Assembly (NCBI GenBank): GCA_965224065.1
Contig: CBDCYF010000005.1
Location: 2,175,616 to 2,239,615, forward strand
Direction: 5' to 3'
From: Candidatus Multivoradales bacterium
GTDB lineage: Bacteria; Acidobacteriota; Thermoanaerobaculia; Multivoradales; JAHEKO01
Length of the DNA: 64,000 bases
Below the pieces are notes generated by a model. That model saw only the letters and a list, made by a program, of their open reading frames with translations, was not told the DNA's origin and did no database searches. Both the position numbers and the translations under genes were made by a program. This document shows, piece by piece, positions 50,290 to 50,472 of this stretch. Within the stretch, counting starts at the first letter, position 1. The number at the start of each line of letters is the position of its first letter.

Positions 50290-50472
50290 CTAGCCTGATC
50301 TTCTCACCGGAATCGTAGCGAGAAGCCGCAAATGTCCGAAGATGCAAGGCTTGCGACCGAGGGCGACGTAGGCGTAGCCGTAGCTACGTCGAGGAGCCCG
50401 ACGAGAGCGTAACGTAGCAGATTCAGGCATTTGCGGCTTCGCAGTAGATTCTTGGTGAGAAGATCAGGCTAA
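50290..50472. mobile_element. MITE-like element, copy 2 (183 bp, TIRs CTAGCCTGATCTTCTCACC / GGTGAGAAGATCAGGCTAA), inverted relative to copy 1
   Basis: Inserted in the 200-bp gap between the atpD stop and atpC start. The atpD stop codon (cta 50469-71) lies in the TIR. Confidence 0.7.

Follow-up and report, generated by a model that had tools for sequence, protein, structure and literature searches.

A probable MITE with IS1380-type ends at the atpD stop codon of an acidobacterial ATP synthase operon, and the conserved hairpin of its family

In the ATP synthase operon of a Candidatus Multivoradales bacterium (Acidobacteriota; Thermoanaerobaculia), a 175-bp non-coding element lies between atpD and atpC. 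With high probability (about 0.85), we are dealing with a MITE that has ends of the IS1380 type and was inserted into a CTAG tetranucleotide overlapping the atpD stop codon; it is most likely carried as a passive passenger. All positions refer to the window, i.e., the whole stretch of 64,000 nucleotides that was analysed. As a single event, a MITE in a permissive spot of an essential operon is ordinary, as in the cases of Correia, ERIC and REP. In addition, the analysis defines a MITE family with IS1380-type ends in the poorly studied, largely uncultured class Thermoanaerobaculia.

The element and its site in the operon

The features of the junction, from atpA to atpC, are as follows.

52842-54581, minus strand: atpA, a 579-aa ORF (identity by position and synteny)
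51948-52826, minus strand: atpG (ORF list)
50469-51920, minus strand: atpD, F1 beta subunit, 483 aa, with its TAG stop at 50469-50471 (ORF list and translation)
50469-50472, no strand: target-site duplication on the atpD side, CTAA on the plus strand and TTAG on the gene strand, holding the atpD stop (direct reading)
50454-50468, no strand: terminal inverted repeat adjoining atpD, GGTGAGAAGATCAGG on the plus strand (repeat search and other copies)
50294-50468, minus strand: the MITE, 175 bp, non-coding; the 'forward' direction of the profile runs along the atp mRNA (nhmmer)
50294-50308, no strand: terminal inverted repeat adjoining atpC, CCTGATCTTCTCACC (repeat search and other copies)
50290-50293, no strand: target-site duplication on the atpC side, CTAG (direct reading)
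50269-50289, minus strand: the native atpD-atpC spacer, i.e., the atpC leader, CCCGCCCCCAAAGCACGCGCC on the gene strand, 21 nt, intact (direct reading)
49861-50268, minus strand: atpC, F1 epsilon subunit, 135 aa (Pfam PF02823 on all homologues)

The minus-strand order of an atpA-like ORF, atpG, atpD and atpC, taken from the ORF list of the window, is matched by the loci of relatives, which carry the expected Pfam domains and include 483-aa atpD orthologues with ATP-synt_ab. By direct reading, the atpD stop is the reverse complement of 50469-50471, and the gene strand across the junction runs ...GAG AAT TAG / element / CTAG CCCGCCCCCAAAGCACGCGCC ATG. The atpD-atpC gap measures 200 nt (50269-50468, direct reading), against 3-21 nt in five relatives, and this comparison bears out the unusual spacing reported in a first-pass annotation of the window. 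The same annotation described a 183-bp element filling the gap; the interval 50290-50472 is exact to the base when the target duplication is included, but the gap is not filled entirely, as the 21-nt atpC leader is intact. The leader is equal in length to the entire spacer of one relative (L121) and contains no evident Shine-Dalgarno sequence by direct reading.

The two 15-bp repeats match at 15/15 positions, or 18/18 counting the palindromic flank. Accordingly the 18-nt sequence TAGCCTGATCTTCTCACC is found perfect at 50291-50308 (plus strand) and at 50454-50471 (minus strand), and with up to three mismatches it occurs five times in the window, compared with 0.01 expected from shuffles. The boundaries of the element at 50294 and 50468 were set from other copies and from full-length IS relatives. 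Of the 19-bp terminal repeats proposed at first, the inverted repeat itself holds and the length does not: the true repeat is 15 bp, and the other 4 bp are the palindromic target duplication. The atpD stop, which had been placed inside the repeat, sits in the target-site duplication and thus belongs to the duplicated host target. The duplication is imperfect (CTAG/CTAA, with three of four positions equal). In the ORF list no frame of at least 60 aa lies inside 50294-50468, and both the size and the non-coding nature of the element are those of a MITE. The nhmmer score of the atp copy is 162.9 on the minus strand vs 38.9 on the plus strand.

AtpC of the window has a single entry in the protein database, and its nearest relatives there, 81% and 75% identical, lack the element at their loci. 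The empty site reads ...GAC AAC TAG, 17 nt and ATG in L119/L120, and ...GGC TAG, 21 nt and ATG in L121, the 75% relative; at all of these loci a CTAG spans the atpD stop. More distant empty sites have spacers of 11 nt (L242), 7 nt (L243/L244) and 3 nt (L249). Presence and absence are therefore seen across relatives that are 62-81% identical in AtpC, not as a within-species polymorphism. The core of the atp copy is 72-76% identical to the copies found at the atp junction of another clade (see below), and is closer to the second copy of the window (86.7%) and to dispersed copies, which indicates a local, independent insertion. Among the other retrieved MITE-bearing loci, tblastn with AtpD and AtpC found no atp-linked copy.

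Three further features were seen at these empty loci. Immediately past the atpC stop of L121 (541-600) lies a 56-nt derivative of the family with both arms and no core, reading GGT TAG, then CCCGACCTTCTCACCGGCCTTCTACTGCGACG·CTACGAACTCGGTGAGAAGGCCAGA, then CTAG, and flanked by TTAG/CTAG. The empty spacer of the same locus (118-131) starts with CTAGCCTGAC, which equals the duplication plus the first six repeat bases of the second window copy, and could be fortuitous, or reflect either a longer preferred target or the footprint of an excision. At L242 (516-1989), just a 166-aa C-terminal part of atpD is called, with a 308-aa opposite-strand ORF before it; frameshift errors are the likely cause, since the contig name suggests a low-coverage long-read assembly, and a real disruption is possible.

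A dispersed family with ends common to IS1380-family elements

Besides the atp copy, the window holds one full and one truncated copy.

46694-46869, plus strand: second full MITE copy, in the orientation opposite to the atp copy (repeat search, nhmmer)
46660-46689, no strand: truncated end of a third copy, …ACGCAGTAGATTCCCGGTGAGAACGTCTGG (repeat search)

The second copy is flanked by CTAG duplications at 46690-46693 and 46870-46873, and the TAG of the latter is the stop of a TetR-like gene (46870-47463, minus strand). We note that the stretch 46660-46873 is nested, with the truncated end followed by CTAG and the full copy, as if the second copy had entered the duplication of the first element, and that a 203-aa ORF on the plus strand (46057-46668) terminates within the truncated copy.

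Genomes were scanned, one per species (596 Gb), with the pattern GGTGAGAANNTCNGGCTA, and the retrieved loci were then searched with a profile. The genome loci yielded 25 full-length copies, 70-87% identical to the atp copy and nearly all from MAGs of Thermoanaerobaculia or of unclassified Acidobacteriota; scanning metagenomes with a 16-base pattern from the interior of the element gave 36 further matches, for a total of about 60 further copies in contigs of Thermoanaerobaculia and other Acidobacteriota. The terminal repeat of the family has the 15-bp consensus CCTGACCTTCTCACC. In the pooled copies, 70 of 90 flanks are CTAG and the remainder mostly one-base variants, and matched duplications other than CTAG are found at L070 (CTAA/CTAA) and L065 (TTAG/TTAG). 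The copies combine terminal repeats, a 4-bp duplication of fixed length and multiple dispersed locations. A TA duplication of the IS630/mariner type was considered and dropped, as full-length elements and other copies show the 4-bp CTAG and repeats starting with CC. Vibrio, Streptomyces, cyanobacteria and others gave many single matches to the 15-base pattern, in a number that chance alone would produce in 596 Gb; these were discarded.

Two other readings, namely a native RNA that regulates the atp operon and is conserved there, and an inverted repeat that arose by chance, would agree with the position at an operon junction and with the presence of similar sequence at this junction in a second clade. 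Both are already refuted by the present results: some 60 copies occupy unrelated loci with target duplications, by tblastn, no other retrieved copy adjoins atp genes, five relatives have spacers of 3-21 nt, and the repeat count and fold lie far beyond shuffled controls. The first-pass annotation had itself set a mobile, MITE-like insertion against a sequence that is present at this site in all relatives and has no copies elsewhere; the latter pattern was looked at and does not hold, and the mobile insertion is borne out by the dispersed copies, the target duplications, the IS1380-type ends and the empty sites in the closest relatives.

The ends of the MITE are also those of autonomous elements. 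At three Acidobacteriaceae loci (L043, L070 and L039), two inverted MITE repeats bound a stretch of 1677-1692 bp, surrounded by 4-bp duplications (CTAG/CTAG or CTAA/CTAA). The elements of L043 and L070 enclose an intact 460-aa IS1380-family transposase (NCBIfam NF033539, E = 1.6e-122; Pfam DDE_Tnp_1_4, E = 2.4e-155). In the element of L039 (1981-3672), the transposase is split by a frameshift into overlapping frames of 400 aa and 298 aa, and this is probably a dead copy. At two Gemmatimonas loci, a 58%-identical transposase adjoins the repeat. The search pattern fixed the 15 repeat bases plus CTA, and the similarity of the repeat to the IS ends is therefore there by construction; independent evidence for the link is limited to the pairing of the repeats, the transposase and the duplication found at the opposite end. 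With this understanding of the repeat sequence, the MITE has its ends in common with the autonomous elements of L043, L070 and L039. Only the terminal 15-17 bases are common to the MITE and the full-length IS1380-family elements, so that the MITE is not a simple internal-deletion derivative of those elements. In a tblastn search of the window and all loci, matches to the transposase are confined to the Acidobacteriaceae and Gemmatimonas loci; the transposase is absent from the 64-kb window and from the retrieved Thermoanaerobaculia loci.

These properties fit what is described for the IS1380 family. One member, IS1247, is 1672 bp long and has repeats of 16/13 bp (PMC3281130). The short 4-bp duplication of the MITE is that of the family (IS1380, IS1247, ISEcp1), in line with the elements of about 1.68 kb that carry the MITE's repeat; unlike IS1380-family elements, the MITE is without a transposase, and the full-length elements come from Acidobacteriaceae and Gemmatimonas, not from Thermoanaerobaculia. 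IS1380 transposases form the prokaryotic outgroup of piggyBac, whose target is the 4-bp palindrome TTAA (PMC10813416), and some variants of the MITE family also have TTAA duplications.

A counterpart in target choice is MITEPsy1 of Pseudomonas syringae, a 100-nt element with CTAG or YTAA as insertion site and a 4-nt duplication (PMC3189936). The CTAG target and the 4-nt duplication are alike, but the MITEPsy1 repeats differ (GGAAGGTCTGAAAAAGCC) and the element is attributed to ISPsy2, not to the IS1380 family; the part of its description consulted reports neither an association with stop codons nor a conserved structured core (PMC3189936). A literature search found MITEPsy1, with its CTAG target, and no description of an IS1380-derived MITE or of a MITE that targets stop codons.

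Variants with other ends were also found. In three lower-GC metagenome contigs (L223, 221-422; L218, 2243-2407; L143, 960-1190), the family core is conserved and the ends differ (CCCGCATTTCTCACA...), some of these copies having extra internal segments. The flanks are TTAA/TTAA in L223 and CTAG/CTAA in L143; in L218 the left flank is TTAG and the other end is off the contig. Conservation of the core between different ends indicates that the core travels with more than one repeat type.

CTAG targets and stop codons

The tetranucleotide CTAG is depleted about 8-fold in 349 kb of MITE-bearing loci (144 free sites vs 1108 expected). A gene whose stop is the TAG of the duplication abuts 30 of the 52 evaluable MITE copies (58%), whereas 23 of the 144 free CTAG sites (16%) stand at the stop of a long high-GC3 frame (Fisher p = 3e-8); genes were defined here by thresholds of at least 100-150 open codons and GC3 of at least 0.75, which are crude and admit some false frames in high-GC DNA. 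Both full copies of the window abut stops, namely those of atpD and of the TetR-like gene. The 64-kb window contains 32 CTAG sites, several free ones lying on stop codons. Those at the stop of atpG (51948) and of the gene after atpC (49244-49247) are unoccupied potential targets in the atp operon, the first being annotated as follows.

51948-51951, no strand: unoccupied CTAG at the atpG stop, a potential target, which closes a 294-codon minus-strand frame with GC3 of 0.89

The element stands exactly on the atpD stop because its target is the rare tetranucleotide CTAG. Together with the purging of disruptive insertions, target specificity suffices to account for where the element lies in the atp operon. 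The MITE would be mobilised in trans by a DDE transposase of the IS1380 type. Integration, as read from the flanks of the copies, takes place at CTAG and less often at CTAA, TTAG or TTAA, with duplication of the target. Copies that land inside genes would be purged by selection, so that the surviving sites would largely be those in which the last sense codon has C as its third base and TAG is the stop. The atpD end before insertion, ...AAC TAG as in the closest relative, offered such a target; with the insertion the TAG was regenerated, AtpD stayed unchanged, and both the 21-nt atpC leader and the start codon remained intact. In sum, the CTAG target, its depletion and the regeneration of TAG supply a mechanistic reason for the stop-codon positions and predict where further copies sit.

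A strand-specific hairpin and the second clade

The complementary arms of the atp copy reach 55 nt at 76%. As RNA, the spacer has a computed fold of −95.1 kcal/mol (z = −7.15; 0/200 shuffles as stable), and the hairpin is still present in the fold of a 301-nt context. The element on its own folds at −86.4 kcal/mol in the atp mRNA sense and at −100.1 kcal/mol in the antisense, the stabler-folding strand being the plus strand, antisense to atp. The element is expected to be co-transcribed with atpD-atpC and to adopt a long hairpin structure, with a folding energy between about −86 and −95 kcal/mol.

Co-transcription of MITEs within operons is familiar from Correia/NEMIS in Neisseria, ERIC/IRU in enterobacteria and Yersinia, and RUP/BOX in Streptococcus. 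Transcripts of Correia, ERIC and RUP/BOX fold into long hairpins within their host mRNAs, and for Correia and ERIC both RNase processing and effects on mRNA stability have been demonstrated experimentally. Long stems can act as a substrate for double-strand-specific RNase or as a barrier to 3' exonuclease in Correia, ERIC and REP. The present elements are like Correia, ERIC and RUP in being short, non-coding, bounded by terminal repeats and a target duplication, present in many copies and frequently intergenic or intercistronic. However, Correia and ERIC have a TA target, whereas this family has IS1380-type ends, with a 15-bp repeat starting with CC and a 4-bp CTAG target; its hosts are Acidobacteriota (Thermoanaerobaculia), unlike those of Correia, ERIC and RUP. 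The REP/BIME palindromes of enterobacteria are intercistronic or 3'-terminal, and their RNA hairpins can protect upstream mRNA. A strand-specific hairpin that tolerates G·T/G·U is a further likeness to REP/BIME, but REPs are about 35 nt long and are moved by Y1 (RAYT) transposases via single-stranded DNA, with neither DDE-type repeats nor target duplication.

The most likely consequence for the atp operon is a passive one, in that the stem-loop would stretch the distance between the atpD stop and the atpC start from 21 to 200 nt. As the leader shows no evident Shine-Dalgarno sequence, atpC may rely on coupling to the termination of atpD, and the stem-loop may weaken this translational coupling, offer a site to double-strand-specific RNase, or block (3') exonuclease. 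The hairpin would also bring the atpD stop and the atpC start back together in space. F1 requires three beta subunits per epsilon, and for this reason any drop of epsilon relative to beta would be tolerable. A regulatory role of the hairpin in the atp operon, suggested in the first-pass annotation as a means of setting the epsilon:beta ratio, is possible. The form of an intrinsic terminator or attenuator was not found: a scan of 50269-50472 gave no terminator-like site, and the hairpin is followed by GCCCGCCCCCAAAGC, with no U-tract. A consensus scan for sigma-70-like promoters gave 0 sites in 49800-50900, i.e., no candidate for an outward promoter. In Rfam 15, neither the window copy nor seven loci with other copies had a match (E up to 1).

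The hairpin of the family is maintained by compensatory changes, and this in a strand-specific manner. In an alignment of 36 copies, 94.5% of the cells are paired, and 34 of the 53 consensus pairs have changes on both sides; none of 500 shuffles is as high in covariation, and slid controls are also far below. The RNAalifold consensus has an energy of −71.4 kcal/mol for one strand vs −23.3 kcal/mol for the other. Over the 53 pairs, G·U cells outnumber A·C cells by 198 to 37; by columns, G·U is the more frequent of the two in 33 and A·C in 6 (p = 1.4e-5). These covariation and strand counts are taken from copies that are phylogenetically related, so that the cell counts overstate independence. 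In many columns the states G-C, G·U and A-U replace one another, with A·C bypassed. In each of the 24 copies tested it is the same strand that has the better fold, and for the window copy this is the strand antisense to the atp mRNA.

The family core may accordingly be a functional, strand-specific RNA, or a single-stranded DNA structure used for propagation, carried between IS1380-type ends, the atp copy being one insertion among others. We hold this reading as tentative and regard it as rather less probable than not. The fold energies, the G·U/A·C asymmetry and the common strand of all 24 copies speak for it, as does conservation of the core both in low-GC variants with other ends and TTAA duplications and in relics that have no repeats. 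The kinship of the copies, however, inflates the cell counts, no Rfam family matches, and the one copy scanned for promoters, the window copy, has no promoter-like site. Nor is there an orientation bias toward host genes able to supply transcription: the family copies are oriented 19:13 relative to the abutting gene (p = 0.38), and contexts split by eye into operonic and terminal show no clear bias either. In addition, the core-less 56-nt derivative of L121, with both repeats and target flanks, suggests that the core may not be needed for integration, unless it was deleted in situ.

A second clade (clade B; loci L245/L246, L250-L252 and L253), about 60% identical to the window in a comparison of three proteins, carries the core of this element at its atpD-atpC junction, oriented as in the window. 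The gaps measure 153 nt in L245/L246 and 140 nt in L250-L252, and the contig of L253 starts inside the element. L245 and L250 are without both terminal repeats and have a common left boundary, in which the stop codon and 2 nt are followed by CGCCG/CGCGG...; L253 retains a degenerate right repeat followed by CTAG, and L250 has the same CTAG TCTC before ATG. The loss of the repeats in L245 and L250 and their common left deletion boundary make these copies look orthologous and immobile, and we read the clade-B atp copies as one old insertion.

The cores of L245, L250 and L253 are 84-86% identical (JC distance 0.15-0.18). By comparison, identity at the 4-fold degenerate sites in atpC and the downstream gene amounts to 42-44%, vs 34% for random, i.e., the synonymous sites are saturated, and the clade-B spacer outside the core is unalignable. 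We note that the relics of clade B are no closer to one another than to dispersed copies from unrelated genomes; slow evolution therefore characterises the family in general and is not peculiar to the atp site. Other members of clade B lack the element (7-nt gap in L243/L244, 3 nt in L249), and L247, the closest relative of L245, has a spacer of only 35 nt. By our own reading of the sequences, the lower stem has 11/16 pairs in L250 and is degraded, vs 15/16 in L245.

Exaptation of the element as an intercistronic RNA, which would tune epsilon vs beta as an mRNA processing site, a stability determinant, a translational uncoupler or a template for antisense RNA, is in our judgement unlikely. It would account for the clade-B core, which shares junction and orientation with the window copy and is conserved far above synonymous sites in relics that look immobile and orthologous, for the hairpin kept by covariation, and for the one orientation of two independent insertions (window and clade B). 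Yet the closest relatives of the window are without the element, and its absence from L243/L244 and L249 and reduction in L247 indicate that it is dispensable; the window copy, with perfect repeats and a likeness to the dispersed copies of its genome, looks recent and mobile. Further points against exaptation are the family-wide slow evolution, the degraded lower stem of L250, the unbiased orientation relative to the upstream gene, and a structural constraint that favours the strand antisense to the atp mRNA.

The passive-passenger reading, which we prefer, is nonetheless challenged by two observations, namely the retention of the core in clade B and the family-wide conservation of a hairpin that is compensatory and strand-asymmetric. 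It is not obviously the case that a pure DNA parasite with a DDE transposase would need such conservation. The core could be a structured nucleic acid with a strand-specific function, in the simplest case an RNA, that was recruited orientation-specifically between atpD and atpC at least one time, perhaps two, and that persists in one clade as a conserved, repeat-less relic long after its mobility was lost; we think this improbable. If true, this would document the domestication of a MITE for regulating a core bioenergetic operon. The strand-asymmetric covariation and the slowly evolving clade-B relic make it a testable question whether such hairpins tune the subunit stoichiometry of operons.

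Finally, several copies on one contig are often co-oriented, in 6 of 8 comparisons (L095, L145, L026, L073 and L135 vs the window and L150). This excess is not significant, and hints at a bias relative to replication or transcription.
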